Assembly (NCBI GenBank): GCA_003507445.1
Contig: DNVR01000019.1
Span: 76,395-140,394 of the forward strand
DNA: 64,000 bases
Direction: 5' to 3'
Source: Candidatus Moraniibacteriota bacterium
Lineage (GTDB): Bacteria; Patescibacteriota; Minisyncoccia; Moranbacterales; GWC2-37-73
Part shown: positions 10,130 through 36,000 of the stretch, piece by piece
Numbering within the stretch: position 1 is the stretch's first letter
Layout of the letters: each line of letters opens with the position of its first letter
Notes under the pieces: generated by a model
Databases searched by the model: none
Told to the model about the DNA's origin: nothing
The model's input: the letters and a program-made list of their open reading frames with translations, nothing else
Translations under genes and position numbers: made by a program

Positions 10130-10157
10130 TTTCAATTTTACATCTTTGACAAATGGT

Positions 10158-10686: not shown

Positions 10687-10692
10687 AGGCCT

Positions 10693-15724: not shown

Positions 15725-17212
15725 ATGAAAAAGTCAAGATTACAGCGGAAAGTAGCTGAGCTGCCTCAAAATCCGGGGGTGTATTTTTTTCGTGATCAAG
15801 AGGGTAAGATTTTATATATTGGCAAGGCGACAAACCTTCGTTCCAGAGTTCAGTCGTATTTTCGCAATGTCATCCCGAACTCGTTTCAGGATCTAGATGA
15901 GCCTAGCGAGATGCTGAAACAAGTTCAGCATGACACAAAGGGATTCTTGAGCGTTCCTGGGCGGAGTGAATGGATTGGGTTGATGGTGGCTCAAGTTGTG
16001 GATATTGATTTTGAGCAGACGGATTCAGTTTTGGAAGCGCTGATTTTGGAAAGCAATTTAATTAAAAAATATCAGCCAAAATATAATACTCTGGAGAAAG
16101 ATGATAAATCATTTTCGTATTTTGTTGTCACTAAAGAAGAATTTCCAAAAGTTTTGATTGTGAGAAAAACAGATTTAGTTTGTCATCCCGCACTTGATGC
16201 GGGTTCCAGTCACACGCACAAATCTGGCTCAGCTCTGGATTCCCGCCTACGCGGGAATGACAAGGCCTCAAAGCCTTGTAAAAAAATACAAAATACCAAA
16301 TACCAGATACCATATACCAAGACCTTCGGTCCTTATACGAGCAAGCAACAAATGCAGACCGCGCTGAAAATTATCCGTCGCATTTTCCCGTTTCATGCTG
16401 GGAAACAAAAAACTGAAAAAGGCTGTTTGGATTTTCAAATCGGTCTTTGTCCTGGGCCGTACGCTGATGCAATTTCAAAAACTGATTATAAAAAAAATAT
16501 TCGAGGGATTGAAATGATTTTGCAGGGGAAGAAAAAAAGCTTGATTTCAAAAATGGAAAAAGAAATGCAAGTTTTTTCCAAAAAAAATGAATTTGAAAAA
16601 GCGGCAGTTCTCCGAAATAAAATTTTTGCATTGCAGCACATTCGCGATGTGGCACTGATGACAAGGGAGATGGAACATGGAGCATGGAACATGGAGCATG
16701 AAATACAAGATACAAAATACCAAATACCAAATACCAGAATCGAGGCTTATGATATCTCCAACATCTCTGGACAATATGCTGTTGGTTCAATGGTGGTTTT
16801 TGAAAATGGTATGCCGAATAAATCGCAGTATCGCAAGTTTAAAATAAAAACTGTTGATGGCAGTAATGATGTGGCGATGATGAAAGAAGTTTTGTCGCGA
16901 AGATTTAATAATGATTGGTCAATGCCAGATTTGATTTTGCTGGATGGCGGACAGGGACACGTTAATATGGCAGGGGATTTGGTGCGCGAATTAGGACTAG
17001 ATTTGTTGATTGTCGGTGTGGCTAAAGGTAAGACGCGTAAAAATCTCAATTTCCAATTTCCAATTTCCAATAAAATCCCAATGTCTCAATTTCCAAAAGA
17101 AATGCAAGAGTTTTTAAATGATAAGAATCTGGTTAAATCTATTATGGATGAGGCTCACCGCTTTGCAATTGCTTATCATCGAAAATTACGCAGTAAAAAC
17201 GCCTTAAAATAA
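15725..17212 (+). CDS. uvrC: Excinuclease ABC subunit C (GIY-YIG, UVR and RNase H-like endonuclease domains, no C-terminal HhH), carrying several in-frame repeat/MITE insertions
   Basis: GVYFFRDQEGKILYIGKATNLRSRVQSYFR (GIY-YIG), EFEKAAVLRNKIFALQ (UVR), and a DISNISGQ...LLDGGQGH endonuclease core. Inserted peptides: SFQDLDEPSEMLKQVQHD, CHPALDAGSS...DSRLRGNDK, NTKYQIPYTK, MEHGAWNMEHEIQDTKYQIPNT and NFQFPISN. Confidence 0.85.
   Translation: MKKSRLQRKVAELPQNPGVYFFRDQEGKILYIGKATNLRSRVQSYFRNVIPNSFQDLDEPSEMLKQVQHDTKGFLSVPGRSEWIGLMVAQVVDIDFEQTDSVLEALILESNLIKKYQPKYNTLEKDDKSFSYFVVTKEEFPKVLIVRKTDLVCHPALDAGSSHTHKSGSALDSRLRGNDKASKPCKKIQNTKYQIPYTKTFGPYTSKQQMQTALKIIRRIFPFHAGKQKTEKGCLDFQIGLCPGPYADAISKTDYKKNIRGIEMILQGKKKSLISKMEKEMQVFSKKNEFEKAAVLRNKIFALQHIRDVALMTREMEHGAWNMEHEIQDTKYQIPNTRIEAYDISNISGQYAVGSMVVFENGMPNKSQYRKFKIKTVDGSNDVAMMKEVLSRRFNNDWSMPDLILLDGGQGHVNMAGDLVRELGLDLLIVGVAKGKTRKNLNFQFPISNKIPMSQFPKEMQEFLNDKNLVKSIMDEAHRFAIAYHRKLRSKNALK
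15869..15934. mobile_element. P2-family palindromic MITE inserted in-frame in uvrC (66 bp)
   Basis: gtcatcccgaactcgtttcaggatctag atgagc ctagcgagatgctgaaacaagttcagcatgac. The same GCTGAAAC/GTTCAGC arms occur twice in the elp3-like gene. Confidence 0.6.
16182..16262. mobile_element. P1-family palindromic MITE inserted in-frame in uvrC (~81 bp)
   Basis: gtcatcccgcacttgatgcgggttccag ... ctggattcccgcctacgcgggaatgaca. Same termini and arms as the intergenic P1 copies. Confidence 0.6.
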
Positions 17213-17892: not shown

Positions 17893-19413
17893 ATGCAAAA
17901 AATAACAGTTCCAATCATTGGAATGCATTGCAAATCTTGTGAAATTCTTGTTGAAAATAAGCTTTCTGAAATCAGCAAGATCAAAAAAATAGACGTCAAT
18001 TGTAAGAAAGGAACAGCTGATATTTATTACGAATCTCAAAAACCCAATATGGTGGAAATAGAAAAAGCCATCAGGGAAGCGGGTTATGCGGTTGGAGTGG
18101 CAGAAAAAAAACCGTTGTTCAGTCGGAATATAAATGAATATAAAGATTTGGGGATCGCCTTTTTGTTTCTGTTTGGTATTTATTTGATTGCAAAAAATTT
18201 AGGGCTAGCTGACATTGGAGTAAGTTCCGCATCAAATCCATCGAGCTTGGGCGTGGTTTTCTTGGTGGGGATTACGGCTGGGATTTCAACTTGTATGGCG
18301 TTGGTGGGAGGTTTAATTTTGGGAATTTCTGCTCGTCATTCTGAGAAACATCCTGAGGCTACTGCCGCGCAAAAGTTTCGTCCGCATTTATTTTTCAATG
18401 CCGGCAGGATTGTGATTTACGCCTTGTTGGGTGGACTGCTTGGTTTGATCGGTTCTTCATTTCAATTGTCGGGAGTGACTTTGGGAATTCTGACAATTGC
18501 AGTAGGAGTTGTGATGTTGTCACTTGGACTAAAATTGATTGGAATTTTTCCTCGTTTGGAAAATGGTGGAATAGCTTTGCCGAAAAGCATCAGCAGTGCG
18601 TTGGGCATTCACCCTGTTAAATCCTGCGAAGCAGGTGCTCGCAGTAGCGAGCAATTTAACAGGGTAAAAAATAATACCAAAGAATATAGTCATAAAAATT
18701 CATTCGTTATGGGTGGACTGACATTTTTCTTGCCCTGTGGCTTCACGCAAGCGATGCAACTTTATGCTGTGAGCAGTGGAAGTTTCACTCAGGGTGCAAT
18801 GATTATGGGTATTTTTGCACTTGGAACAGCTCCTGGACTCTTGGGTATTGGCGGTCTGGCTAGTGTGGTGCGCGGAATTTTTGCTCAAAGATTTTTTAAG
18901 TTCGCTGGAATCCTCGTGATATTTTTGGCGATGTTTAATATTGCCAATGGATATAATCTGACTGGCTGGCAAGTGTCGAAAGTTGAAAGTCGAAAGTTGA
19001 AAGTTGAAAGTGTGATTGATCCTAATGTGACAATGGAAAACGGCGTGCAGGTTGTTAGAATGAAGGAAATTGCCAGTGGATATTCTCCGAACAAATTCAC
19101 AATCAAAAAAGACGTGCCAGTGAAATGGATTATTGATGCTCAGGCTCCGTATTCTTGTGCCAGCAGTCTTGTGGTTTCAAGTTTGAAAATTCAAAAAACT
19201 TTAAAGGCAGGCGAAAACATTATTGAATTTACACCAACAAAAACAGGTAAAATCCCATTTTCTTGTTCTATGGGTATGTATACTGGCGCATTCACAGTTA
19301 TTGATGAAAATAGTGATGAGGTGGTGGTTGAAGACGACCTGGTTGAAAAGCAGGCTTCTGGTGGAATATGCAATAAGCAAGGATGTAATATAAATAAAGA
19401 TCGAATTAAATAA
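17893..19413 (+). CDS. HMA-domain membrane protein (N-terminal MxCxxC metal-binding domain, multi-TM permease-like domain with conserved Cys, C-terminal cupredoxin-like domain)
   Basis: GMHCKSCE heavy-metal-associated motif, several TM helices (FLVGITAGISTCMALVGG and FFLPCGFTQAM), and a C-terminal beta domain with conserved Cys. An in-frame (GAAAGTT)n repeat lies at 18975-19012. Confidence 0.6.
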   Translation: MQKITVPIIGMHCKSCEILVENKLSEISKIKKIDVNCKKGTADIYYESQKPNMVEIEKAIREAGYAVGVAEKKPLFSRNINEYKDLGIAFLFLFGIYLIAKNLGLADIGVSSASNPSSLGVVFLVGITAGISTCMALVGGLILGISARHSEKHPEATAAQKFRPHLFFNAGRIVIYALLGGLLGLIGSSFQLSGVTLGILTIAVGVVMLSLGLKLIGIFPRLENGGIALPKSISSALGIHPVKSCEAGARSSEQFNRVKNNTKEYSHKNSFVMGGLTFFLPCGFTQAMQLYAVSSGSFTQGAMIMGIFALGTAPGLLGIGGLASVVRGIFAQRFFKFAGILVIFLAMFNIANGYNLTGWQVSKVESRKLKVESVIDPNVTMENGVQVVRMKEIASGYSPNKFTIKKDVPVKWIIDAQAPYSCASSLVVSSLKIQKTLKAGENIIEFTPTKTGKIPFSCSMGMYTGAFTVIDENSDEVVVEDDLVEKQASGGICNKQGCNINKDRIK

Positions 19414-19564: not shown

Positions 19565-22351
19565 ATGAAAAGAATAAACCTGTCTCTTTCTGGAATGCAC
19601 TGTGCTTCCTGTGCAATGTTGATTGAAAAAGTGCTTGCAAAAACTCCTGGTGTACAAAAAGCCAGTGTGAATTTTTCTGCAGAAAAAGTTTTGATTGATT
19701 TTGATGAAAATATAACCGATCCGCAAAAACTTATTGCTGCAATAGTTAAAGGTGGATATGGTGCTGAAGAAATTGATGCTAAAGATAGTGAATTTGAAAA
19801 GAAAAAAAGGGATCATGAGATCTCAGAATATTTTTCAAAATTTATGTTTAGCGCTTTGCTTAGTGTGCCGATGTTGTATTTTATGCTTTTGGATTTTTTT
19901 AAATGGCTTCCAGGGGAAAAAACTTTTGCGCCATACATTGGTGTGTTTTCATTGCTTTTGACAATTCCTGTGCAGTTTGTGATTGGTTCAGGCTTTTACA
20001 AGGGAATGTGGTCATCGCTAAGGATGAAGACGTTTAATATGGACAGCTTGATTGCAATTGGAACTTCGACTGCTTTTTTCTTCAGTTTGTATAACTATGT
20101 GACATATGTCATTGCTAATAATTCCTTGATCGGAGTTGGTGGTATGAAAATTCCTGATCTGTATTTTGAAACAGCAGCTTATTTGATCACATTTGTGATT
20201 CTTGGAAAATGGTTGGAAATTAGAACAAAGGGAAAGACATCTGATGCGATCAAAAAATTGATGGGGCTGCAAGCGAAAACAGCCCGCGTGATTCGTGGTG
20301 GCGAGACGCTTGATATTGCAATTGATGACGTGATTCATGGTGATATCATTATTGTTCGCCCTGGAGAAAAAGTTCCTGTTGATGGAAAAATTACCAAGGG
20401 AACATCTGCCGTGGATGAATCTATGATTACAGGAGAAAGCTTGCCAGTAGAAAAAAATATCGGAAGTATGGTTGTTGGTGGAACTATTAATAAGACAGGA
20501 AGCTTTGAGTTTGAAGCTACAAAAATTGGTTCAGAAACAACATTAGCTCAAATCATTCGCTTGATTGAAGAAGCGCAAGGATCAAAAGCACCGATTCAAA
20601 ATTTTGCCGACAGTATTTCTGCTTGGTTTGTTCCAGCTGTGATTGGAGTTGCAATTTTGACTTTCATTGTCTGGTATTTTTTCTTGGGAGCAACTTTAGC
20701 TTTTGCTTTGTTGGCATTTACTTCGGTAATTGTGATTGCATGCCCATGTGCACTTGGTTTGGCAACCCCGACATCATTAATGGTTGGAACAGGTAAGGGC
20801 GCTGAATATGGCGTGCTTGTAAAAGGTGGAGAAGCGCTTGAAGCTGCAAGCAATATTTCAGCTGTAGTCTTTGACAAGACTGGAACGCTTACCAAAGGAA
20901 AGCCTGAGGTGGTAAAAATAATTTCAAATCCTGCTTTTGATTTTGATGAGGATAAGATTTTAAAAATATCATCAAGCATTGCAAAACATTCCAATCATCC
21001 CTTGTCTCAAGCTGTTGTAAGATATGGCGAAAAACAAAATATTCAACTAGCTGATTTTGGAGATTTTCAAGAAGTCCCTGGAAAAGGAATAATTGCAAAA
21101 TGCTTAACACATAATAAGGAAATAGTTTTGGGTAATATTAGAATTCTAGAGCAAGTAGGAGTCCAAACTTCTTGGGCAAAAAATCTTCTGGAAAATGAAT
21201 CTGTAAGCGCTGGGACATTACTTTTTGTGGTGCATAATGGCGATGTTGTGGGGGCAATTTCAATTGCTGATGAAGTAAAAGAAGAATCAAAAAAAGTGGT
21301 GGCAAAACTTCAAAAAATGGGTATTGAGGTTTGGATGATTACTGGAGACAATGCGCGCACAGCAAAAGCTATTGGCTTGCAGGTTGGAATCACAAATATT
21401 TTGGCAGAAGTTTTACCAGAAGATAAAGCTAACGAAGTTAAGAAACTTCAAGCTCAAAAAATAAAAAAACATTTCCATTTGTTTGGAAATTGGAAATTAG
21501 AAATTGGAAATTCCACCCGCAGGGTGGCTATGGTTGGAGATGGAATTAATGACGCTCCTGCACTAGCTCAAGCTAATGTAGGAATCGCAATGGGATCAGG
21601 AACTGATGTGGCAATGGAGGCAGGCGACATTGTTATAATGAAAAGTGATCTGAATGATGTGGTAACTTCATTTGAACTTTCAAAAGAAACGATGGGTAAA
21701 ATAAGACAAAATATGTTTTTTGCTTTATTTTACAATGTGATTGGAATTCCAATTGCTGCTCGTGTTTTCTTTGGAATCGGCTTGGTGTTAAAACCAGAAC
21801 TAGCAGGACTTGCTATGGCGATGAGTTCTATTTCAGTAGTTGGAAATTCATTGCTTCTTAAATTATTCAAGCCTGGCAAGAGAAACTATATTTCTTTGGT
21901 TGCGCCAATTATTATGATGGTAGTTTTCACGTTCGGATTTTATGAATTTGCAAAATTCAGCAGTGGAATGGAGAATACAGTTATTAATGAGGAGCAAATA
22001 AGGGTTGAATTTAATAAATTGAATTTGAATGCCCAAATAGAAATCATAAGTGAAGAGGCTGGAGTAAAGGCATTTTATTTTACTGATGAAAATAATGTTC
22101 CAAAAGAATTGCGGGAAGAAATAAACAGCAAAAGTTTCACGCCTGAAATAATCAATGGAAAAAAATATCAGAAAGTTTATATTGGTTGGGTAGAGGCGCA
22201 GATGATGATTGAAAAAGAACTTATCCAAAAATCAGGGGACAGAGCGGATGATTTTTTTGGAAACAGTGTCATCATTGAAATCTTGCCCAAAACCAAAACC
22301 ATTCTCGACAATTTCCATTTTGTCGGAGCTGATTTTCAGATCAAGAAATAG
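19565..22351 (+). CDS. copA: Copper-translocating P-type ATPase (CopA-like) with an N-terminal HMA domain, a ~170-aa C-terminal extension, and an in-frame heptamer-repeat insertion
   Basis: [11 protein letters not shown] ([12 protein letters not shown]), DKTGTLT, and [17 protein letters not shown]. The insertion [18 protein letters not shown] (21470-21514) falls just before the GDGINDAP hinge. Confidence 0.88.
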
Positions 22352-23906: not shown

Positions 23907-24067
23907 ACTCAAATATTGATAGGCTTTACATTTCGGGTTTTTGCTGATACAATTATCTCCAGTATAAATTTGAAATCTGGACTTGAAACAAAGAAAAATA
24001 TGATTTAGAGAAAGACCTGTTTTAATGCCTAAAACCTAATACCTAATACCTAATATCTTCTTAAACT

Positions 24068-26860
24068 ATGGCTTCCAAAAAAGAAACTTCGAAACAAACA
24101 AATGAGATTGTAATCAAGGGTGCGCGAGTTAATAATCTCAAAAACATCGACGTTAACATCCCGAGGGATAAGTTCGTGGTGATTACGGGACTTTCTGGCT
24201 CGGGTAAATCATCGCTGGCTTTTGACACGATTTATGCCGAAGGTAATCGTCGATATATGGAAGGCCTTTCTTCGTATGCGCGAAATTTTTTGGATCCATC
24301 AGATAAGCCTGACGTGGATAAAATTGAAAATCTTTCCCCTCCAATTTCTATTGATCAAAAAAGCATTTCTCGTTCTCCGCGATCAACTGTTGGAACACTG
24401 ACTGAGGTTTATGATTATTTGCGTATTATGTATGCAAAAATCGGAGTGCTGCATTGCCCGGAGTGTGGGACATCAATGCAAAAAAGAAGCAATCAGGAAA
24501 TTTTGGATGAAATTTTAACATTTTCTCATCACACTCAGATTGCTATTTTGGCAAAGCCGAAGGATATTGCTGTTGGAAAAGAATTATTAAAACACATTGC
24601 GCAAATGGGCTATGCTCGTGTGCGTTTTAATGGAAAAATGTTTACGGTAGCGGAAGCTATGATGCTCAGCGAAAGTGAAATTGAAACTGATATTGAAATG
24701 GTTATTGATAGAATTGTGCTCGACAAGAAAAAACCTGATGTGGAAAGAATGTTAGACTCTATTGAAACAGCGATGAAAAACGGTGGCAATTCAATGAAGA
24801 TCTTGTTTGATAATGTTGAAGAACGTAATTATAACCAAGATTTCTTTTGCAGCGAATGCGGTGTGAAAATCAAAGAAGTGACGCCGCGTCATTTTTCTTT
24901 TAATAGTCCAGAGGGTGCTTGCGACCTGTGCTCCGGTTTAGGTTACACCTTAAAAGTAAATGAAGAACTTATTATTCCCAATAAAAATCTTTCTTTAATG
25001 GAAGGTGCAATTCAGCCCTGGAGCAAATCTGGTGGAAAAATAAGTGGACAGAGTGTGCAACTTTTGACGCTTAAAGATGTTGCAAAAAAATATAAGTTTT
25101 CAATGAACGTTCCGGTTAAAAAATTAACAGCTGATCAACTCAAAATTGTTTTACATGGTAATGATGGATTTGAAGGTGTAATTCCGGCATTAGAAAAAAA
25201 ATATCAAGAAACAAAATCTGATTATGTGCGCAGTGAAATTGAAAAATATATGACCGCACACACTTGTCCATCTTGCGATGGCAAGCGTCTTAAAAAAGAA
25301 TTTTTGGCGGTGGAAGTTCAAGGAAAAACAATAGATGTGATGGTCTCAATGAGTATAACTCATCTGAGAGAATTTTTTGAGAATGTTGAAAATTGGACAC
25401 AAACAACACAAGAGAAAAGCATAGGCAAACCTATTGTGCGAGAAATTTTGCAGCGTCTTAGTGCACTTGAAAACGTGGGATTGGAATATTTAAATTTGGG
25501 ACGATCAGCTCAAACAATTTCTGGTGGGGAAGCTCAACGTATCAGACTGGCTGCGCAACTCAATTCTCAATTGATGGGAATTGTATATGTTTTGGATGAA
25601 CCTTCCATCGGACTTCATTCTCGCGACACAGAAAAACTTATTAATACTATTAAAGCCTTGCAAAACGTTGGAAATTCATTGATTGTGGTTGAACACGATG
25701 AAAGCATCATTAAAGCTGCTGACTGGATTGTTGATATGGGTCCAGGGGCAGGAGAAGAAGGCGGAATCGTCGTTTTTGAAGGTGATTATAATCAACTTAT
25801 TAAATCTAAAAATCTTACTGCACAATATATATCTAAAAAGAAAAAGGTTTCAGAAAAGAAAAAAAATAGAGCTGGAAACGGTAAATTTATTGAAATTATC
25901 GGAGCTGAAGAAAATAATTTAAAAAATGTTGATATAAAAATACCATTGGAAAAATTTGTGGTTATTTGTGGAGTTTCAGGCAGTGGAAAATCAACTTTGG
26001 TAAAAAATATTTTAGCCAAAGCATTGTCGCGACATTTTTATAACACACGAGATCTTCCTGGTAAACACAAAAAAATCAAAGGATTTGAGCATATTAAAAA
26101 GGTTATTAGTATAAATCAAAATCCAATCGGACGCACTCCACGCTCAAATGCAGCAACGTATACTGGAGTGTTCTCACACATTCGCGACCTGTTTGCTGGA
26201 GTGGAGGAAGCAAAGAACAGAAATTATACTGCTAGTCGCTTTAGTTTTAATATGAAAGGTGGGCGCTGTGAAGTGTGCCAAGGGGAAGGCTCAAAGAAAA
26301 TAGAAATGCATCTGCTTCCTGATATGTATGTGAAATGCGAAGCTTGCGGAGGAACGAGGTTTAGCAAAAAAACCTTAGAGATTGAATATAAAGGCTTTAA
26401 TGTTGCACAGATTTTGGATATGGATGTGCGCTTGGCTCTGCGTTTTTTTGCAAGGCATCCGCTTATTGCTGAAAAACTTAAAACCATGGAAGATGTTGGT
26501 CTTGGATATTTGAAGCTCGGACAAAGTGCAACAAATCTTTCTGGTGGAGAAGCTCAGCGTATTAAACTTGCCACGGAGCTTGCACGAAAATCAACAGGCA
26601 GCACTTTGTATATTTTGGATGAGCCAACTGCAGGACTTCATTTTGATGATATCAGAAAATTGTTAAGCGTTCTTAATGCCTTGGTTGATAAAGGTAATAC
26701 AGTGATTGTGGTTGAACATAATCTTGATGTTGTTCGTGATGCTGATTGGGTGATTGAACTTGGACCGGATGGTGGCGACCTTGGTGGTTATCTCACTTTT
26801 GCTGGCACACCAGATCAACTTAAAAAAGACAAGAAAAGTTGGACCGCGAAATATTTGTAG
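24068..26860 (+). CDS. uvrA: Excinuclease ABC subunit A paralog (copy 2, full length)
   Basis: [34 protein letters not shown]... Has two ABC modules and Zn-finger Cys pairs. 930 aa; the domain order matches copy 1. Confidence 0.9.
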
Positions 26861-26870
26861 AGATGTCTGT

Positions 26871-26985
26871 GTCATTCCGGACTTGATCCGGAATCCAGGA
26901 TTTAACGCACTATTTTTTCTATTATAATATTCGTAATTTAATACTTGAGATATTAATCCTGGATTCCTGCCTACGCAGGAATGAC
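26871..26985. mobile_element. GTCAT...ATGAC palindromic MITE-like element (P1 family), intergenic copy 3
   Basis: gtcattccggacttgatccggaatccaggatttaacgcac ... atcctggattcctgcctacgcaggaatgac. Confidence 0.6.
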
Positions 26986-27001
26986 AAAGAAAAAAGTAAA
27001 G

Positions 27002-27460
27002 TTATAATGATAGCAAAATAATTGCTATCACTGAAAAAATAATATCGTTCGCTGCATTTCGGAGTGTCCAGAGTCTTTCTTTTGAGTCATCTGGAAATTT
27101 GTGAACTCGTTGGTGGAATTTATATATTTTTTCTAAAAATTTGAAATTAAGTTTCCAATAGAGTACTGTTAACAAATCAGGAAACATTGAGATGAGCGCA
27201 CCTGTTATTATTGAGATGGAAATTACTGACGGTATGTTTTTGGCATAAATTGCAAAAAGAATAATCACACCGCCGACAAGAAGATCAAGAATCACTTTCC
27301 AAGTTGTATTTTTGAAAGTTGATTTTTTTCCTAAATATTCTCCGTGGCGAAAAGTATCTAAAATGTAATGAAGGGGGATCAGGACTGCTGTTAATGCTAT
27401 TGGATTGTGAATGTACTTTCCAATGGCAGCGCCGACAAGGGCGTGAGTGGTAAGGATCAT
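27002..27460 (-). CDS. Small polytopic membrane protein, possibly of the DUF457 (YdjM-like membrane-bound metal-dependent hydrolase) family
   Basis: MILTTHALVGAAIGKYIH start, three to four TM helices. Weak family assignment. Confidence 0.35.
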   Translation of the reverse strand: MILTTHALVGAAIGKYIHNPIALTAVLIPLHYILDTFRHGEYLGKKSTFKNTTWKVILDLLVGGVIILFAIYAKNIPSVISISIITGALISMFPDLLTVLYWKLNFKFLEKIYKFHQRVHKFPDDSKERLWTLRNAANDIIFSVIAIILLSL

Positions 27461-27464: not shown

Positions 27465-27600
27465 GTAAGAATTTCTAATGTCTAATTTCTAATATCTAAT
27501 AAAAAATTTAATGACAAAATGTCCAAAAGTTTCGTGCATTAGGAATTGGAAATTGATTAGAAATTGGTAATTAGGAATTAGAAATTAAAGATAAATTTAG
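27465..27600. repeat. Hairpin-forming (TTAGAAAT / AATTTCC)n repeat module in the divergent promoter region
   Basis: aatttctaatgtctaatttctaatatctaat ... attaggaattggaaattgattagaaattggtaattaggaattagaaatt (inverted halves). Confidence 0.55.
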
Positions 27601-27637: not shown

Positions 27638-28342
27638 ATGGAGAAAATCGGAAAATTATATATCGTTGCTACCCCAATTGGTAATCTCGAGGACATTACT
27701 CTTCGCGCACTGCGTGTTTTGAAAGAGGTTGATATGGTGGCGTGCGAAGACACTAGGGTTACTCGAAAACTTCTAAATCATTATAACATAGAGACACAAG
27801 CAATTGTGTATCATCAACATACAAAAGACGATAAAATTAAGAAAATTATTGATGAAATTTTGGTTGGCAAAAATGTCGCTGTGGTAACTGATGCTGGCAC
27901 CCCAGGAGTTTCTGATCCTGGAAATATCTTGGTAGCTGAAGCTATTGCTAACAATATTGTTGTCTTGCCAATTCCAGGGGCTTCAGCTTTGGCTTCAATT
28001 ATCAGTGTGGCTGGGATTGATATGCAGCAATTTACATTTTTGGGTTTTCCTCCGCACAAGAAAGGACGGGAGACATATTTTAAAAAAGTATCAGTTAGTG
28101 AGATTCCTTTTATTTACTATGAATCACCACATCGCGTGATCAAAAATCTGGAATTATTGAAAACAATCGTAGAGACGCAAAATTTTGCGTCTCTACCGCA
28201 AGGGGAGAAAAAAATCATTCTCGGTCGCGAACTGACCAAAATGTTTGAAGAAGTGGTGCGCGGCAATATTAATGAGGTCTTGGAATATTTTGCAGAAAAT
28301 CCTTCAAAAATAAAAGGAGAATTTGTGATTGTTGTGTATTGA
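27638..28342 (+). CDS. rsmI: 16S rRNA 2'-O-methyltransferase RsmI
   Basis: LYIVATPIGNLEDITLRALRVLKEVDMVACEDTRVTRKLL is the tetrapyrrole-methylase-like RsmI signature. Confidence 0.85.
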   Translation: MEKIGKLYIVATPIGNLEDITLRALRVLKEVDMVACEDTRVTRKLLNHYNIETQAIVYHQHTKDDKIKKIIDEILVGKNVAVVTDAGTPGVSDPGNILVAEAIANNIVVLPIPGASALASIISVAGIDMQQFTFLGFPPHKKGRETYFKKVSVSEIPFIYYESPHRVIKNLELLKTIVETQNFASLPQGEKKIILGRELTKMFEEVVRGNINEVLEYFAENPSKIKGEFVIVVY

Positions 28343-28429: not shown

Positions 28430-30154
28430 ATGAAAAATGAAATTCAAAAATTAATAGAAAGTGCCTTAAATGAGGCAAAAAGGGCTAATGATTGGGTTGA
28501 TTTTGAGATGCCTGAAATTCTCGTTGAATATCCAAAAAGTGAACAATTTGGGGATTATACAACAAATGTTGCTATGATTTTAGCAAAAAAAGTTGGGAAA
28601 AATCCGATGGAAATAGCTGAGATTATTAACTTACAACTTACAACTTACAACTTACAACAATTTGAAAAAATAGAGGTGGCTCAGCCGGGATATATTAACT
28701 TTTATCTTTCCAAAAAGTATTTGCAAGAAATCGTTGAAAAAATAAATACTGAAAAAGAAAAATTTGGAAATTCTGATAAAAAAAATGAGAAAGTATTGGT
28801 AGAATTTTCACAACCAAATACTCATAAAGAATTTCATATCGGCCATTTAAGGAATGTGTTTATTGGAGATGCGCTTGTTAAAACGATAAAGAAATCCGGC
28901 AGCGAGGTAGTTGCTGCAAATTATATCGGGGACACCGGGACACATATTGCAAAGTGTTTATGGGGAATTGTTAAATTTCATAATGGGGAAGATTTGGATA
29001 AGATATCAAACAAGGCTGAATTTCTAGGAAAGGTTTACAGTGAAGCTGCACAGGCTATTGAGAATAATCCTGAATTCGAAGAAGAATTTAAAAATGTCCA
29101 AAAAGAATTTGAAAATGGTGATCAGGAATTGGTTCAATTGTGGAGCAAGACAAAAAAATGGTCGTTGGATGAATTTCAAAAGATTTATGAAAAACTCGGA
29201 GTATCTTTTGACGTTTACTTTTGGGAAAGCGAGGAAGAACTGAAAGGCAAGGAAATGCTAAAAGAATTGATGGGGGTATCCTGTATTAAGGAAAGTCAGG
29301 GAGCTATCGTGGCAGATCTTGAAAAATATGACTTAGGAGTTCTAGTGCTGGTCAGAAAGGACGGTAGCGCCTTGTATGGATTGAAAGATATACCTCTGGC
29401 TGTGAAAAAATTCAAAGAATTTTCCATAGATCGTAGCATAGTGGTTGTTGATTTGCGTCAGAGTCTATATTTCAAACAGATATTCAAAATTCTTGAATGC
29501 ATGGGATTTCACAAAGATATGAAACACGTGGGCTACGAGTTTGTATCCCTGAAGGGAAGTGAGACGATGTCGTCCAGGAAAGGAAACATCATACCAGCAA
29601 CATATTTGATTGATGAAACCGTAAAGCGTGTAAAGGAAAAATTTCCCAATACCGATGTTGCTGAAGAAATTGGCATAGGTGCGTTGAAATTTTATATGCT
29701 GAAATATTCCTCACAGTCAAAAATAGAATACGATATTGAAGAGTCTGTAAGATTAGATGGCGCAACCGGACCGTATGTACAATATGCGCATGCGCGTATT
29801 TGCAATATCTTGGAAAAGGCAAAGGGAATAAAAGGATTAATGGGAGAAAAGGGAAAAATGGGCAATGTGGATTTGCAATTATTAATCCATGAGAAGGAAG
29901 TAAGTTTGATAAAAGAGCTTAATAAATTTCCGGAATTGGTTGCTGTGGTTGCTGAGGATTATGAAGTTCACAAGTTTGCCCATTATGCCATCAAATTGGC
30001 TGACAAATTTCACAGTTTTTATGATGCTTGTAAGGTGATTGATGAGGGCAATGAAGAACTGACAATCGCTAGACTTTCTCTGATAAATGCTGTTAGAATA
30101 GTATTAGCAGAAACCCTGGATTTGATAGGGGTGGATGCACCTGAAAAAATGTAG
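28430..30154 (+). CDS. argS: Arginine--tRNA ligase with an in-frame (ACAACTT)n insertion
   Basis: HIGH-like region (FSQPNTHKEFHIGHLRNVFIGD), with KMSSRKG in the KMSKS position. The insertion NLQLTTYNLQQ is encoded by aacttacaacttacaacttacaacttacaa at 28626-28660. Start uncertain (28394 or 28430). Confidence 0.88.
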   Translation: MKNEIQKLIESALNEAKRANDWVDFEMPEILVEYPKSEQFGDYTTNVAMILAKKVGKNPMEIAEIINLQLTTYNLQQFEKIEVAQPGYINFYLSKKYLQEIVEKINTEKEKFGNSDKKNEKVLVEFSQPNTHKEFHIGHLRNVFIGDALVKTIKKSGSEVVAANYIGDTGTHIAKCLWGIVKFHNGEDLDKISNKAEFLGKVYSEAAQAIENNPEFEEEFKNVQKEFENGDQELVQLWSKTKKWSLDEFQKIYEKLGVSFDVYFWESEEELKGKEMLKELMGVSCIKESQGAIVADLEKYDLGVLVLVRKDGSALYGLKDIPLAVKKFKEFSIDRSIVVVDLRQSLYFKQIFKILECMGFHKDMKHVGYEFVSLKGSETMSSRKGNIIPATYLIDETVKRVKEKFPNTDVAEEIGIGALKFYMLKYSSQSKIEYDIEESVRLDGATGPYVQYAHARICNILEKAKGIKGLMGEKGKMGNVDLQLLIHEKEVSLIKELNKFPELVAVVAEDYEVHKFAHYAIKLADKFHSFYDACKVIDEGNEELTIARLSLINAVRIVLAETLDLIGVDAPEKM

Positions 30155-30156
30155 AA

Positions 30157-30245
30157 ATAACTAATAACAAACAACTAACTACTAACAACAAGGGCTTAAC
30201 AAAGCATTTCTGTTATAAGTTGTAAGTAGTAAGTTGTCAGTTAAT
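30157..30245. repeat. Long imperfect hairpin built from ACAACTA / TAGTTGT repeat units (argS-glycosyltransferase spacer)
   Basis: caactaactactaacaac at 30167-30184 is inverted as gttgtaagtagtaagttg at 30225-30242. Confidence 0.55.
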
Positions 30246-30248
30246 TAT

Positions 30249-31412
30249 ATGAAAATTGGAATTGACGCTCGCTCGATTTTGAACCCCGAAAAAGGAGATG
30301 CAATTGGTGTTGGTCATTATACTTATCAATTGATTCGTCATCTGCTTAAAATAGACAAAGAAAATGAGTATGTTATTTTCTTTGATTTTCGTGTGCGCGA
30401 AAAAGATGTCAAAAAATTTGCTGGGCCGAATGTGAAAATAAAATTTTATCCCTATTCTGATTATAAAAAATATCTTCCGGGGGCTTATAGTGAAATTTTA
30501 GGAACAGCAACACTGCAAAAAGAAAAACTTGATGTGCTTCATTCCACTTCCGCTCTTAATCGTATTCCTATGGGATATAATGGAAAGACAGTGGTAACTT
30601 TTCATGATATGTCGATGTATAGTATTCCTCAATATTTGTCAGCTGTTAAAAGAACTCGCAACAAAACCATAGCTCGTTTGATGGGTCGCAAAGTAGACAA
30701 GATAATAGCTGTTTCATCTTCAATAAAAAATGATGTTGAAAAATTCATTGGTGTGCCAACAGAAAAAACACAGGTTGTTTATAGCGGTTTGGATCAACGT
30801 TTTTTTGAAGAATCAGAAATATCAGTAGCAAAAGTTTTGGGCAAATATGATATTACAAAAAAATACATTTTATTTTTGGGAACACTTGAACCATCCAAGA
30901 ATATAACACGCTTGCTGGAAGCTTTTGCAAAATTTAAAACACAGCAGAAACAGAAAAATTCTGGCAAGTTTGAATATCAATTAGTGCTAGCTGGAAAACG
31001 TGGTTGGCTTTCTCAAGAATATTTGCAAATCATTAAAGATTTAAGTTTAACAAAAGACGTTGTTTTCACTGGATATGTAATTGGGGATGAATTGGTACCA
31101 CTTTTTCGCAGTGCAGAATTCTTTGTGATGCCGTCATTGTATGAAGGATTTGGAATGACGGTGCTTGAGGCGTTTGCAACCAAAACACCTGCGATTTTGG
31201 CTAATGTTTCTTCTCTTCCTGAAATTGCCGGCGAAGCTGCATATTTTATAAATCCTCTTGATACTGCTGAGTTAGCTGAGGCTATTGGAAAATTTGCAAC
31301 AGATGAAAATTTGCGAGCAAGCTATATTGCAAAAGGACTGGAACAGGCCAAGAAATTTGATTGGGACAAAACTGCTCGCGAAACATTGGAGATTTACAAA
31401 AGTTTAAAATAG
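30249..31412 (+). CDS. Glycosyltransferase family 1 (GT4-like)
   Basis: MKIGIDARSI... and a C-terminal EGFGMTVLEAFA motif (E-x7-E region). Confidence 0.75.
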   Translation: MKIGIDARSILNPEKGDAIGVGHYTYQLIRHLLKIDKENEYVIFFDFRVREKDVKKFAGPNVKIKFYPYSDYKKYLPGAYSEILGTATLQKEKLDVLHSTSALNRIPMGYNGKTVVTFHDMSMYSIPQYLSAVKRTRNKTIARLMGRKVDKIIAVSSSIKNDVEKFIGVPTEKTQVVYSGLDQRFFEESEISVAKVLGKYDITKKYILFLGTLEPSKNITRLLEAFAKFKTQQKQKNSGKFEYQLVLAGKRGWLSQEYLQIIKDLSLTKDVVFTGYVIGDELVPLFRSAEFFVMPSLYEGFGMTVLEAFATKTPAILANVSSLPEIAGEAAYFINPLDTAELAEAIGKFATDENLRASYIAKGLEQAKKFDWDKTARETLEIYKSLK

Positions 31413-31439
31413 GCATATCATAGAAATATAAAAGCAATG

Positions 31440-31690
31440 GGGAGGTTATCACCTCGTCGCCCTGGTGAAATATTTACTTTGTAAATTTCACAGGGCAAGC
31501 TGCGAAAAGAAATCCTTTGGGAAAGTAGAATTCGTCGGGTAAGCCCGTTATAGCTGTAAAGAGAGCTTATTAGGCAGTAGCTTCTTAGCTTTTTAGGAAA
31601 TGCATTTTTCTAAGAAGCTAAGAAGCTAAAAAGCTAAGAAGCTAAATTAAGGTGGTACCACGTTGGAAGACGTCCTTATGCATTTATTTG
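31440..31690 (+). promoter_or_regulatory. T-box riboswitch leader (probably Ile-specific) upstream of ileS
   Basis: T-box sequence aaattaaGGTGGTACCACGttgg, a terminator-like hairpin plus U-run directly before ileS, and an AUC in the gaggttATCacctc hairpin. Contains an (AAGCTAAG)4 tandem/inverted repeat. Confidence 0.6.
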
Positions 31691-31724
31691 CATGGGGATT
31701 TTTATTATTTATTTTAAAAAATAT

Positions 31725-34676
31725 ATGGCATTCAAAAAAGTTGATCCGAAACAATCATTTCCAGAGATGGAAAAAGAAATTTTGAAATTTTGGGCTCAGG
31801 AGAAAATATTTGAAAAATCTTTGGAAATCCGAAAAGATTCACAGGAATATACTTTTTATGATGGGCCGCCTTTTGCAACAGGCACGCCACACTATGGTCA
31901 TTTGGTTGGATCCACAATGAAAGATGTGGTGCCGCGTTATTGGACGATGCGTGGATTTCACGTGGAAAGAAAATGGGGATGGGATTGTCATGGGCTGCCG
32001 ATTGAAAATATCGTGGAAAAAGAATTAGGTTCAAAAGCTAAAAGTGAAATTGAAAAATTGGGCGTGGAAAAATTTAACGAACTTTGTCGTAGTAAAGTTC
32101 TGGAATATGTTGACGTCTGGAAAGTTGTCATCAATCGTTTGGGACGCTGGGCTGATATGGAAAATGCTTACAAGACGATGGATTTGCCGTATATGGAATC
32201 TGTCTGGTGGGTCTTTAAGGAGCTTTGGAATAAGGGTCTTATTTATGAAGGTTATCGTTCGATGCACGTTTGTCCTCGCTGCGAGACTACACTTTCTCAG
32301 CAAGAGGTTAGTGAAGGATATATTGATGTGAAAGATTTATCAGTTATTGCGAAATTCGAACTTATTGACCCCGTAAAATCCTCGCAAGACTCGGATCACG
32401 GGGCAGGTGAACCGAAGACTTTCATTTTGGCCTGGACAACAACTCCTTGGACTTTGATTGGTAATGTGGCGCTAGCTGTTAATCCAGAAATGGAATATGT
32501 CTATGTGGAAACAATAAACTCGGAAAAAGATGGAACATTTTCGGAAGAAGTTTTTATTGTGGCTAAAGATAGAGTGGGTGATTTATTTAAAGATAAAAAA
32601 ATTGAAATCGTGCGTGAAGTTTTAGGTTCACAATTGGTTGGCAAAAAATATAAACCAGTTTTTGATTATTACGCTACGTTTGATATTGAAAATTTTGAGA
32701 ATGGTTGGAAAGTTGTGGGCGCAGATTTTGTGGGAGCTGAAGACGGAACAGGCGTTGTGCATATTGCTCCGGCCTTCGGAGAGGACGATTTAAATTTGGG
32801 CAAAGAAAAGAATTTGCCGTTTGTGCAGCACGTTGGAATGGATGGAATCATAAAAAGCCAAGCTGGCGAATTTGCTGGACTGCATATAAAACCAACTGAT
32901 GATCGCACTGCAACTGACGTGGAAATTATAAAATATCTGGCTAAAAGCGGAACTCTTTTTGCCAAAGAAAAATATGAGCATAGTTATCCTCATTGTTGGA
33001 GATGTGACACTCCACTAATGAATTATGCAACCAGCTCTTGGTTTGTGAAAGTTGCTGATATAAAATCAGATGCAATTGATTTGGCCAAAGAAATTCGTTG
33101 GTCTCCTGAACATATTAAGGAGGGACGTTTTGGAAAGTGGCTGGAAGGTGCACGCGATTGGTCAATTTCACGTCAGCGTTTTTGGGCTTCTGTTATACCA
33201 ATTTGGAAATGTGAGTGCGGAGAAATGAAGGTGTTTGGATCCGTGATGGAGCTCGAGGCTGCTAGTGGAGAAAAAATAACAGACCTGCATAAACACATTG
33301 TCGATAAAATTGTGCTTAAATGTGATTCTTGCGGCAAGGATATGCATCGAGTGCCAGATGTCTTGGACACTTGGTTCGATTCTGGTTCAATGCCATATGC
33401 GCAACAACATTATCCTTTTGAAAATGCTGAGCAATTTGAAAAGAATTTTCCAGCTGAATTCATTGCGGAAGGTGTGGATCAAACACGCGCTTGGTTTTAT
33501 TATTTGCATATTATTGCAAGTGCAATTAAAAAAGCTCCTGCTTATAAAAATGTAATTGTGAACGGAACAGTTTTGGCAGAGGATGGAAAGAAAATGAGTA
33601 AGCGTCTTTCGAATTATCCTGATCCAATGGAAATGTTTGAAAAATATGGTGCAGATTCAGTTAGATTTTATTTGATGAGCTCACCAGTGGTGGCTGCACA
33701 AAATTTGAATTTTTCAGAAAAAGATGTGGCAGAAATTGTGCGTGGAATGATGCGAATGTTTTGGAATTCGTATTCCTTTTTTGTGCTGTATGCAAATATT
33801 GATAAATGGGAACATAAAGACCAATTCACACATTCAACTGCAACGAATTTATTGGATCGTTGGATTCTTTCTGAGCTTAACACTTTGGTAATTTCAGTGC
33901 ATAGCGGAATGGAAAACTATGAATTGCATCGAGCTGCTCGAGCATTTCCAAAATTTATTGATGATATGTCCAACTGGTATGTTCGAAGATCGCGCAAGCG
34001 TTTTTGGAAAAGTGAAAATGATGGCGACAAAAGCCAGGCATATGCAACACTTCATCACGTGCTTGTGACACTGACTAAAATGATGGCACCGTTTTCACCT
34101 TTTATCGCTGAAGAAATTTATAAAAATCTTACTGGCAAGGAGTCTGTGCATTTGGCTGATTTGCCGACAGGGGATTATCATCACGTCGATGAGCTTTTGA
34201 ATGATCAAATGCACAAAGTTCGTGAGATTGTGACTCAAGGTTTGCAACTTCGCTCTCAAGCTAAAATCAAAGTTCGTCAACCGCTGGCTAAATTTTCAAT
34301 TTTCGATTTTCAATTTCCGAATGAATTGGTTGAGATAATCAAGGATGAATTGAATGTGAGAGAAATTATTATGGATCGGGAAGATAAAAATGAAATGATT
34401 TTGGATACAGAAATCACAGAAGATCTTGCGCAAGAAGGTGTGGCACGTGAGATTGTGCGGCACATTCAAGAGATGCGTAAAGAAGCAGGCTATGATGTTG
34501 ACAATCGCATTAAAGTGTGCTATAATGGAAAATCAGAGGAATTTGAGAAGTTTAATGCTCTGATTGCCAAAGAAACCCTTGCTGACGCCATTACTGAAGG
34601 TGTTTGCCAAGACGCTGATTTGACCAAGGAACTTAAATTAGACGAAAAAGTGCTAGTAATTTCTATTAAAAGATGA
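31725..34676 (+). CDS. ileS: Isoleucine--tRNA ligase
   Basis: PPFATGTPHYGHL (HIGH), KMSKRL (KMSKS), and a CP1 editing domain. A possible in-frame repeat-derived segment KFSIFDFQFPNE lies at 34290-34319. Confidence 0.93.
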   Translation: MAFKKVDPKQSFPEMEKEILKFWAQEKIFEKSLEIRKDSQEYTFYDGPPFATGTPHYGHLVGSTMKDVVPRYWTMRGFHVERKWGWDCHGLPIENIVEKELGSKAKSEIEKLGVEKFNELCRSKVLEYVDVWKVVINRLGRWADMENAYKTMDLPYMESVWWVFKELWNKGLIYEGYRSMHVCPRCETTLSQQEVSEGYIDVKDLSVIAKFELIDPVKSSQDSDHGAGEPKTFILAWTTTPWTLIGNVALAVNPEMEYVYVETINSEKDGTFSEEVFIVAKDRVGDLFKDKKIEIVREVLGSQLVGKKYKPVFDYYATFDIENFENGWKVVGADFVGAEDGTGVVHIAPAFGEDDLNLGKEKNLPFVQHVGMDGIIKSQAGEFAGLHIKPTDDRTATDVEIIKYLAKSGTLFAKEKYEHSYPHCWRCDTPLMNYATSSWFVKVADIKSDAIDLAKEIRWSPEHIKEGRFGKWLEGARDWSISRQRFWASVIPIWKCECGEMKVFGSVMELEAASGEKITDLHKHIVDKIVLKCDSCGKDMHRVPDVLDTWFDSGSMPYAQQHYPFENAEQFEKNFPAEFIAEGVDQTRAWFYYLHIIASAIKKAPAYKNVIVNGTVLAEDGKKMSKRLSNYPDPMEMFEKYGADSVRFYLMSSPVVAAQNLNFSEKDVAEIVRGMMRMFWNSYSFFVLYANIDKWEHKDQFTHSTATNLLDRWILSELNTLVISVHSGMENYELHRAARAFPKFIDDMSNWYVRRSRKRFWKSENDGDKSQAYATLHHVLVTLTKMMAPFSPFIAEEIYKNLTGKESVHLADLPTGDYHHVDELLNDQMHKVREIVTQGLQLRSQAKIKVRQPLAKFSIFDFQFPNELVEIIKDELNVREIIMDREDKNEMILDTEITEDLAQEGVAREIVRHIQEMRKEAGYDVDNRIKVCYNGKSEEFEKFNALIAKETLADAITEGVCQDADLTKELKLDEKVLVISIKR

Positions 34677-35802: not shown

Positions 35803-35874
35803 GATTGCAAAGTATTTTTTTGAATAAATAATAGCTATATGTAAATATTGAATTTTGTAATGTTTATTAAGTTA

Positions 35875-36000
35875 TCAAATTTCCAATTTCAAATTTCCAA
35901 TTTCCAATAAAATCATAATGACTAAATTTTAAATGACCAAACTTGAGTTCATAATTGAAAATTTAATGAGAATTGAGAACTGAAAATTGAAAATTATGGA
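35875..36000. repeat. Hairpin-forming (AATTTCC)n / (GAAAATT)n repeat module
   Basis: aaatttccaatttcaaatttccaatttccaat ... ttgaaaatttaatgagaattgagaactgaaaattgaaaatt. Confidence 0.55.

Follow-up and report, generated by a model that had tools for sequence, protein, structure and literature searches.

What are the tandemly repeated heptamers that face their own inverse between the genes of Candidatus Moranbacteria, and how do they come to sit where they do? The question is raised by the spacer at 27465-27600 of a 64-kb stretch of DNA (hereafter the window; 50 genes) from this group of ultra-small bacteria of the candidate phyla radiation (CPR, Patescibacteria). An initial annotation of the window had proposed that at least three families of short repeats form long imperfect hairpins in intergenic spacers, in a non-random and genome-specific pattern. 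Here we show that the underlying arrays have a fixed size, are paired with an inverse copy in spacers, stand singly and in frame in genes, are spread over the clade, are turned over as cassettes and are filtered by their context. We consider it somewhat better than an even bet, at a probability of roughly 0.55, that they are small dispersed repeat cassettes, selfish or neutral, which are copied as units, overwrite one another and are filtered by the host, in the manner of the short tandemly repeated repetitive (STRR) sequences and small dispersed repeats (SDR) of cyanobacteria.

The window was compared with 1.23 Mb of syntenic loci of relatives, whose contigs are labelled L001, L008, L013 and so on and whose protein homologues are labelled P0016, P0133 and so on. 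Tandem arrays of at least three copies were counted and 100 first-order Markov resamples of the window served as controls; the set of 100 arrays from the 1.23 Mb that is used below was collected with a slightly looser threshold than the count of 83 arrays of period 7. Significance of folding was expressed as a z score of the RNA minimum free energy (MFE) against dinucleotide shuffles, 200 of them at the focal site. A sliding-window MFE scan of both strands was uninformative for locating the hairpins, because the stems consist largely of A/U and the G+T-rich + strand gives the better fold at every position. Over 2.3-7.6 kb the window is identical (100%) to three independent assemblies from different samples, and its proteins match those of Candidatus Moranbacteria metagenome-assembled genomes at 100% identity.

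Heptamer arrays and the hairpins that they build

The focal spacer separates two divergent genes, an open reading frame (ORF) at 27002-27460 (- strand) and an rsmI-like gene at 27638-28342 (+ strand). Its two arms are 82% complementary and enclose a 49-nt loop that includes AAAAATTTAATGACAAAATGT. As RNA the hairpin folds to -27.3 kcal/mol, against -15.7 +/- 2.6 for the shuffles, none of which (0/200) is as good (z -4.4), which bears out the AATTTCC-type hairpin proposed for 27465-27600. Thirteen such array pairs in the window form hairpins of roughly 30 bp with z scores of about -3 to -10, the seventh being weak. They are as follows; two energies (kcal/mol) refer to the strand named and to its opposite.

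M1, 1343-1415: arms (ACAACTY)5 at 1343-1378 and inverse at 1383-1415, between a rodZ-like gene (stop 1329) and recA (ATG 1426); z -4.2 on the + and -3.9 on the - strand (1336-1415)
M2, 3534-3617, + strand: CATG class, (CATGTAG)4.6, loop, (TGTTATA)4.3, between rpsR and efp (both - strand); -39.2 vs -13.9 (3530-3620)
M3, 4448-4539, + strand: units of M2, rpsF/ssb spacer of a - strand operon; -31.6 vs -14.3
M4 (focal), 27470-27586: arms 27470-27503 (AATTTCT/AATGTCT/AATATCT) and inverse 27553-27586
M5, 30159-30243: (AACTAAC)4.4 and (GTTGTAA)4.4, beginning 5 nt past the argS stop and ending 6 nt ahead of the next gene's ATG; z -3.1 on one strand and -4.4 on the other (30150-30250)
M6, 31564-31643, + strand: period 8, TAGCTTCT / CTAAGAAG, Stem III of the T-box leader of an IleRS-like gene
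M7, 35878-35995: degenerate, (AATTTCC)4AAT, loop, (TGAAAAT)n, downstream of recO; z +0.6 on the + and -1.5 on the - strand (35870-36000), 32/48 arm positions Watson-Crick
M8, 57327-57412, + strand: CATG class, divergent spacer between a radical-SAM gene (-) and a methyltransferase gene (+), both start codons within or adjoining the arms; -23.9 vs -12.1
M9, 58888-58966, + strand: (CATGGAG)3.3 and (TGATCCA)5.6, thioredoxin/thioredoxin-reductase spacer; z -4.9/-3.1
M10, 60544-60622: (AACTAAC)4.4 and inverse, occupying exactly the whole tRNA-Ala(UGC)/tRNA-Ile(GAU) spacer; z -3.6 and -5.6
M11, 61267-61361: (CATATAG)4.3, loop, (TGTTACA)4, secE leader, its final ATG being the secE start codon
M12, 62255-62351, - strand: CATG class, nusG/rplK spacer; -39.5 vs -21.4
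M13, 62788-62884: 8-nt units ACAAATMT (period 8) plus a GC clamp (CCCAC/GTGGG), located after the rplK stop and ahead of an element like an L1 leader; z -7.5 and -9.9 (62783-62889)

M2, M3, M8, M9, M11 and M12 share the layout (CATGNNN)4-loop-(TNNNATG)4 and make up a class of units that lies beyond the three families originally named; together with M6 they are the seven hairpins that had been overlooked. The three ACAACTT-family hairpins that had been proposed (1336-1415, 30157-30245 and 60544-60620) all fold significantly, with z scores from -3.1 to -5.6. For the other two families one site of each pair stands: the second AATTTCC site (35875-36000) folds only weakly as M7, and for the third family the hairpin at 62790-62895 is real and 15010-15050 is a lone array. 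Hairpins do occur, as stated, in the leader of recA, ahead of rplA and in the spacer of the two tRNAs, and it is the one between convergent genes, at 15010-15050, that falls away.

The window holds 18 arrays of period 7, where 0.0 are expected from the resamples, and zero or one for each of the periods 5, 6, 8, 9 and 10. The loci of relatives hold 83 arrays of period 7 and at most six of any other period from 4 to 12. Shuffled sequences do not fold as stably as the modules and the units recur elsewhere, so the pattern is indeed non-random. A typical array consists of about 4.4 units of 7 nt, with units of 8-9 nt occurring occasionally. Lengths of 30-31 nt are the mode (39/100 arrays), and this is also the length of the window's perfect arrays, i.e. 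four units plus three bases; among 51 perfect arrays, 18 have it and the remainder are mostly shorter (19-27 nt). Overall the lengths follow a series 7k+3, with values near 24-25, 31 and 38 nt.

At least 40 different canonical units occur in the 1.23 Mb, CATGNNN/TNNNATG included, so that "at least three" families was an undercount. The AATTTCC/GGAAATT family alone accounts for 20 of the 100 arrays, at no fewer than ten independent sites and in many species. The arrays hence share with STRR-type heptanucleotide repeats the 7-nt unit, the few copies per array and the recurrence of unit families at many dispersed loci. At least ten unrelated AATTTCC sites read (AATTTCC)4AA[T/A] and then ACAAAT or AAAATCC, and arrays of the variants AATTTTC and AATTTTG have the same architecture. 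This fixed phase speaks against local slippage, since slippage would give random phases. Within single arrays the units are homogenised. A search of 2.9 million viral contigs for exact (AATTTCC)4 gave one hit, and a phage origin was rejected.

Intergenic spacers are an incomplete description of where the arrays lie: 55 of the 100 are inside coding sequences and 45 in the intergenic DNA, which makes up ~12%. Coding arrays mostly lack an inverse partner and intergenic ones mostly have one; the single in-frame copies of housekeeping genes fall in variable loops of the proteins. In spacers two arrays of complementary units face each other across a loop of 5-50 nt, which yields an A/U-rich stem of ~30 bp on a single strand, interrupted at every seventh position by a mismatch or a G:U pair. 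Units that are free of stop codons on both strands are found in 29/55 coding arrays vs 7/45 intergenic ones, the pattern expected from a survivorship filter. Nor are the arrays genome-specific, as had been thought: they are a clade-wide feature of Candidatus Moranbacteria, and orthologous spacers across the clade carry repeat-built hairpins with other units. A conserved loop core, AAAATCCAAATGAC, was considered and set aside, as its 47 hits (4.8 in shuffles) come from degenerate, heptamer-like sequence of low complexity.

The modules are not the terminators of this organism. Canonical terminators with a G+C-rich stem and a U tract lie elsewhere, at 2573-2600, 2806-2837, 61167-61188, 61234-61250 and 63652-63689, and a terminator scan of the window called none of the 13 modules as an intrinsic (Rho-independent) terminator. 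The link to transcript 3' ends that the initial annotation implied is thus unlikely. Two bidirectional terminators flank a perfect sigma-70 consensus (TTGACA, 17 nt, TATAAT; 2530-2558) that is followed by a small, hydrophobic-looking ORF of ~46 codons (2647-2787). Close to M13, between it and the probable rplA ATG at 62953, an element GUGGGAG...(U/G)ACCAC is conserved at 62909-62950 and in its equivalents in L093/L095; this element probably serves as the autoregulatory leader of L1. In the ORF list, rplA begins too early, at GTG 62901. The tRNA genes around M10 are adjacent (60468-60697), Ala preceding Ile, and no rRNA gene is near; a strong promoter-like site lies at 60420-60447, and in L093 (1311-1543) the pair is inverted as a whole relative to secE.

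Turnover of arrays between genomes

Between genomes that are 85-95% identical, arrays are absent, present or wholly replaced. At the focal site most of 21 orthologous spacers carry a repeat-built hairpin with a differing unit, and four of the 21 are empty (14-29 nt). The same spacer in L013, the closest sampled relative (13434-13694), contains a different palindrome of ~260 nt and -71 kcal/mol, with no heptamer module. L095 has M11 and lacks M12, and L093 lacks M11. In L093/L094 M12 has been exchanged as a whole, arms and loop alike, within flanks that are 91-95% identical; M13 is represented in L093 by a lone 9-mer array. M10 is retained with a few substitutions in a relative of 91-95% identity.

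Arrays that stand singly in genes behave likewise. The lone arrays of the window, in genes and between them, are listed here; about eleven are in frame in genes, at three places in the case of uvrC.

15010-15046, + strand: lone array of ACAAATCT type, equal to the left arm only of an M13-type module, between convergent genes; no hairpin and no partner at 15010-15050 (z -1.1 and -1.9)
16283-16319, + strand: in-frame (AAATACC)5 in uvrC, preceded by a hairpin ACAAGGC-CTCAAA-GCCTTGT
16666-16736, + strand: two adjoining in-frame arrays in uvrC, (GGAGCAT)5 then (AAATACC)5
17047-17071, + strand: in-frame (CAATTTC)3.6 in uvrC
18978-19011, + strand: in-frame (GAAAGTT)4.9 in a DsbD/HMA/cupredoxin gene
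21455-21523, + strand: in-frame insert (57 nt net) in a Cu-ATPase gene, with (TTGGAAA)4.3 at 21483-21512 and a hairpin CCACCC-GCA-GGGTGG
24023-24055, + strand: lone intergenic (TAATACC)4.7, no inverse partner; the second uvrA lies 13 nt downstream
28628-28658, + strand: perfect in-frame (AACTTAC)4.4 in the ArgRS gene, in a loop of the N-terminal domain
34291-34316, + strand: in-frame (AATTTTC)3.7 in the IleRS-like gene
38977-39024, + strand: tgt, hairpin CTCTTCC-AGT-GGAAGAG and directly after it a perfect in-frame (AATTTCC)4AAT
54478-54525, + strand: rlmN, perfect in-frame (TTGGAAA)4.4 and directly after it a hairpin CGATGTT-GAT-AACATCG

The Cu-ATPase insert is absent from L013 and L011 and, where present, is built of TTGGAAA or TTCAAAA units. 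The DsbD site has GAAAGTT units in the window and (ACAACAA)n in L013. The ArgRS loop holds one of three different arrays, or other small inserts, depending on the species. In 114 close homologues of Tgt the loop is 9-53 aa long, basal in 27 and expanded in 87, and in homologue P0133 the AATTTCC array is itself interrupted by a GC-rich palindromic element. Copy number is unchanged between near-identical contigs (pairs L008/L076, L037/L040 and L052/L053) and between orthologues, and the arrays are identical across the three 100%-identical assemblies. The polymorphism in unit number between close strains that marks contingency loci is therefore missing, and the arrays are cassette-like in gain, loss and replacement, not hypermutable microsatellites.

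Other small elements occur as well. A second, G+C-rich palindromic family has common ends GGAATGAC / GTCATTCC, for instance TTCCCGCCTACGCGGGAATGAC, and is found at 2843-2965, 15064-15090, 15155-15175, 16229-16262 and 26868-26990; its members are intergenic, include a long composite palindrome after uvrA, and at 16229-16262 lie in frame in uvrC. The coding sequence of the radical-SAM gene (55622-57352, - strand) contains a 26-nt inverted repeat of 96% complementarity at 55891-55966 (TGTCATGCTGAACTTGTTTCAGCATC ... GATCCTGAAACAAGTTCAGCATGACA), and inserts of the same 'MLKQVQHD' type interrupt the ArgRS loop in L008/L076 and some of the Tgt homologues. The core of argS (28776-29879) is unalignable with L013 at the DNA level despite flanks of 85% identity, and L008 ArgRS (10001-11685) is 36% identical over residues 9-505 and 85% over 521-586; the gene looks mosaic or replaced, to judge from these comparisons. 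Two UvrA paralogues lie 9 kb apart (12042-14936 and 24068-26860) with uvrB (8171-10129) and uvrC (15725-17212) in the neighbourhood.

At three to four of ~11 independent AATTTCC sites a short perfect hairpin (6-7 bp, loop of 3-4 nt) directly abuts the array. All of these are coding copies, and the hairpin is on the AATTTCC-5' side of the array. Hairpins that directly abut coding arrays of the window lie at 38977-38993 in tgt, 54509-54525 in rlmN, 21513-21527 in the ATPase gene and 16260-16279 in uvrC. Their sequences are specific to the site, as the Tgt, RlmN and ATPase hairpins listed above illustrate. A stem of 6 bp or more abuts 11 of the 100 arrays vs 2% of random positions; four of these 11 belong to orthologues of the ATPase site, and several are A/T-rich stems in intergenic DNA. 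The hairpins covary between orthologues, in the ATPase gene as CCACCC/GGGTGG, CTCGCC/GGCGAG and CCACTC/GAGTGG, and in Tgt as CTCTTCC/GGAAGAG, TTTTCC/GGAAAA and TTTTGC/GCAAAA, and a Tgt allele that has no array has no abutting hairpin either. In Tgt the hairpin seems to force a substitution in the protein: at position x of LFxWK, 24/27 uninserted alleles have V/I, and 45/87 inserted ones have R, C, Q, K or L (Fisher's exact p = 1.3e-4, ignoring phylogeny).

This pattern hints at a hairpin-guided step. It is a speculative and rather doubtful thought that a dedicated DNA transaction writes a fixed cassette of ~31 nt, (unit)4 + 3 nt, beside or into small hairpins. Were it true, full modules and the Stem III expansions described next would come from the same process, and a shared enzyme could explain the heptamer arrays of Nostocales, Beggiatoaceae and some Bacteroidetes, which is conceivable because similar arrays occur in all three.

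The T-box leader at 31428-31680, upstream of the IleRS-like gene (31692-34676), is where an array pair forms part of a known kind of RNA. It matches the full length (1-219) of the model RF00230 with 47.2 bits (E 1.7e-9), the gathering score being 93, and an Rfam scan of the window at gathering thresholds reported two tRNAs only and missed the leader. The low score is probably due to the repeats, which expand Stem III to ~30 bp. The T-box sequence AAGGTGGTACCACG at 31649-31662 is conserved in 13 loci, and the gene downstream encodes a class I synthetase of Ile/Val/Leu type. A Stem III of 26-32 predicted pairs is seen in 11 of 13 orthologous leaders, and 10 of these 11 stems consist of tandem units, with about five unit pairs in use; L047 has a long non-repeat hairpin and L021 an ordinary 8-bp stem. 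Stem strands that are runs of complementary 7-nt units are found among these leaders; the window's own Stem III has period 8. An alignment-based covariation analysis (MAFFT, then RNAalifold) recovered only 12 pairs, because MAFFT cannot align arms of different units, and folds of the single sequences were used instead. In 13/13 leaders the sense strand gives the more stable Stem III and carries its G:U pairs. Modules are thus transcribed, and they fold as RNA at places that require a fold.

In ordinary spacers the orientation can be the reverse. M2 and M3 fold on the + strand only, M2 through seven G:U pairs, and M12 folds on the - strand only, antisense to nusG and rplK. In both operons concerned, rpsF-ssb-rpsR-efp and nusG-rplK, it is the strand opposite to the coding one that folds, an orientation shared by the M12 replacement in L093; the three modules do not fold in the mRNA of their operons. 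Within the window, M2, M3, M7 and M12 fold clearly better on the non-coding strand, M1 only slightly so. A general rule of antisense folding was rejected, as the sense strand carries the G:U pairs in L002, L024 and all 13 T-box stems, and so was a replication-strand cause, as the folding strand flips with a - strand operon. When a transition is homogenised over an array, A.C pairs on one strand and G.U pairs on its complement follow automatically, without any need for selection on antisense pairing itself. The CATG-class element may be intrinsically oriented, with the host filtering its orientation, and each site would keep the orientation or mismatch pattern that its transcript tolerates.

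Known systems and competing explanations

Heptamer arrays are already known from cyanobacteria and Beggiatoaceae, as is a general excess of heptamers among long simple sequence repeats (SSRs). The cyanobacterial STRR heptamers and the SDR of Nostoc were reportedly described by Elhai et al. in 2008, in Genome Res 18:1484. They resemble the present arrays in being dispersed tandem heptamers of a limited unit vocabulary, in coming and going between close relatives as very small elements with no known transposase, and in the nesting of small palindromic elements within heptamer arrays, comparable to Tgt homologue P0133. STRRs differ in taxon, and the present arrays stand apart by their modal length of ~31 nt, their fixed phase and their frequent in-frame copies in housekeeping genes. 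To our knowledge a strict ~31-nt mode and a fixed phase have not been described for STRRs. STRRs are also said to belong to (heterocystous) cyanobacteria and to have the units STRR1-3; here the host is a member of the Moranbacteria, and the STRR1-3 units are neither among the 40 commonest canonical units listed nor in the arrays of the window. Literature searches yielded no report of such heptamer repeats in CPR bacteria (Moranbacteria, Parcubacteria). The units TTTTGAA/TTCAAAA are common to Nostoc PCC 7120 and L008/L001, and heptamer repeats of this kind lie near start codons in Nostoc (bioRxiv 10.1101/2022.06.06.494920).

The P6b stem of the tRNA-Leu(UAA) group I intron of Nostoc and Calothrix consists of degenerate heptanucleotide repeats, in the account of Costa et al. 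2002 relayed by later papers (PMC4476775, PMC3488679). There, as in Stem III of the T-box leader, a functional RNA has a variable stem whose two strands are mutually pairing runs of 7-nt units, unit classes are swapped without a change of structure, length changes by whole units and small elements are inserted into others. Here the organism belongs to the CPR and not to the cyanobacteria, the host RNA is another one, and the repeats are found also in ordinary spacers and as single arrays in protein genes. Direct repeats of TAACTGA in marine Beggiatoaceae, some Cyanobacteria and Bacteroidetes (PMC4679880) are heptamer arrays too. They have 2-6 copies, lie mainly between genes, frequently a short way ahead of start codons and occasionally in ORF ends, and are patchy in phylogenetic spread and so far without a mechanism; they have one dominant unit and one indirect repeat among 170 sets, whereas dozens of units and regular inverse pairing in spacers are found here.

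The repetitive extragenic palindromic (REP) sequences of proteobacteria, their mosaic elements (BIME) and hairpin-forming doublets (REPIN) have a conserved sequence, a 5' tetranucleotide and a cognate REP-associated tyrosine transposase (RAYT) (PMC3116915, PMC8266576, PMC2817692). They too are abundant extragenic palindromes of intercistronic and 3' regions, form hairpins in single strands and fall into families within a genome. Compared with these palindromes of 20-40 nt, the arms described here are tandem repeats of arbitrary units with copies also within genes, no terminal motif is shared across families, and no Y1/RAYT domain was found in the window. Rickettsia palindromic elements (RPE) were reportedly introduced by Ogata et al. 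in 2000 as selfish DNA of ~100-150 bp and few families that lies in frame in protein genes. The likeness is that small in-frame repeats are tolerated in surface parts of essential proteins of a reduced genome (context in PMC1779305), and the Cu-ATPase, the Tgt loop and the ArgRS loop all have in-frame inserts that some homologues lack. The coding copies here are single arrays of ~31 nt, mostly unpartnered, and not palindromes of RPE size. The strict 31-nt mode with its fixed phase, routine inverse pairing, expansions of T-box Stem III and abutting hairpins go beyond the descriptions that we found.

Under the cassette explanation that we prefer, whole units of ~31 nt would be copied at the DNA level and overwrite each other at permissive sites, gene conversion or template switching between arrays being candidate routes, possibly guided by small hairpins. 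The host would tolerate lasting copies at three kinds of place only: spacers, variable stems of structured RNAs such as T-box Stem III, and surface loops of proteins. Local tolerance of the transcript would then shape orientation and mismatches, so that modules fold in the sense RNA of T-box leaders and not in the mRNA of tight ribosomal-protein operons. If the modules act in the processing or stability of RNA, this would be a secondary role, and roles at the RNA level are possible at some sites.

Several points weigh against this explanation. No mobilising enzyme, be it a transposase, a reverse transcriptase or a RAYT, is encoded among the 50 genes of the window; no consistent target-site duplication was seen at M2, M3, M8, M11 or between empty and filled sites, where A/T-rich flanks could hide short ones; the copying step is something we infer throughout; and the sample consists of ~1.2 Mb of syntenic neighbourhoods rather than whole genomes. 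Array positions at the ATPase site are conserved at 29-30/30 against 16-25/30 in the flanks, and at 17047-17071 of uvrC 24-25 of 25 positions match in every comparison among five species (window, L008, L018, L023, L029), the array of L076 being identical; conservation above the flanks could mean purifying selection and hence function, instead of recurrent renewal of the arrays. The retention of hairpins at the same spacers in most species, both arms changing together, fits selection for structure, and the pairing of CATG-class modules through G:U on one strand only suggests that a single-stranded form, RNA or DNA, matters.

These points lead to the tentative alternative that the modules are functional RNA elements, i.e. 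RNase III-type processing sites, protectors of 3' ends or controls of translation, and that repeats are this lineage's way to make or repair stems. It would account for positions that are conserved while sequence turns over in both arms, for Stem III with its sense-strand folding and G:U pairs in all 13 leaders, for modules at classic places of processing (spacers between tRNAs and in ribosomal-protein operons) and for the many that abut or include the downstream start codon; in Nostoc, deletion of heptamer repeats alters reporter expression (bioRxiv 10.1101/2022.06.06.494920). Yet several orthologous spacers are empty and their genes presumably still expressed, M2, M3 and M12 are unable to fold in their own operon mRNA, the same arrays stand in coding sequences without forming a hairpin, and an RNase III cut in a T-box leader would be hard to square with riboswitch function. 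The strand-specific G:U(T) pairing of the CATG class, independent of the orientation of host genes, would fit a single-stranded intermediate, as expected if the modules were miniature inverted-repeat (MITE) or REP/REPIN-like elements moved by a transposase encoded elsewhere, e.g. a Y1 enzyme (IS200/IS605 or RAYT) acting on single-stranded hairpins. Their inverted-repeat structure of 70-120 nt, a trait that is trivially true of any hairpin, and their many copies, polymorphic for presence, agree with this, but we regard it as unlikely, since neither the 64-kb window nor the neighbourhoods read contain a transposase, families share no target duplication or terminal motif, the unit families number in the dozens, and the commonest form in genes is a single 31-nt array with no inverted repeat.

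Fixed size and phase, conservation above the flanks and closeness to start codons are also what one would expect of sites for a protein that reads a 7-nt periodicity, either a ribbon-helix-helix/omega-type repressor on DNA or a protein of S1, cold shock (CSP) or CsrA type on RNA. Binding of S1/CSP/CsrA type has been proposed for the TAACTGA repeats, and protein binding likewise for Nostoc (PMC4679880; bioRxiv 10.1101/2022.06.06.494920). With 40 or more units that are interchangeable at one orthologous site, many arrays deep in coding sequences and no candidate binder identified, this is improbable. Ordinary SSRs that arise through replication slippage and serve as contingency loci, their hairpins being chance juxtapositions, are largely refuted and very improbable: heptamers are the commonest class of long SSR in many bacteria (Mrazek 2007, as quoted in PMC4679880), and the 7k+3 series and homogenised units would suit slippage, but copy number does not vary between samples, near-identical contigs or orthologues, phase and length are equal at unrelated sites, the same few units recur across many loci and species, and inverse partners are far commoner than chance.

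Consequences for Moranbacteria and their annotation

For annotation the arrays are a hazard, since they make in-frame ladders of ATG and of stop codons that mislead gene callers. Arrays that contain ATG or TTG extend ORFs upstream at efp (3529/3583), recA (1383/1426), ssb (4472) and secE (61359), and public gene calls begin inside repeats, for instance in L11 homologues (P0016 and others) of 153-156 aa instead of 140-142, and in secE of 62 or 69 aa in L096/L095. The arrays also add low-complexity peptides to core enzymes, and repeat expansion puts a genuine T-box leader below the Rfam threshold. They further amount to a natural experiment in tolerance, showing which protein loops and RNA stems accept additions of 10 aa or 30 bp. 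As they are present, absent or replaced between genomes of 85-95% identity, the modules are sensitive strain markers for groundwater CPR populations.

The puzzle of heptamer arrays dates from 1990, and their origin and spread in bacteria have been unexplained since the STRRs of cyanobacteria. Their presence in a second, very distant lineage makes the question testable: Moranbacteria have genomes of ~1 Mb and hundreds of sequenced relatives, among which genes that track the array load could be sought.

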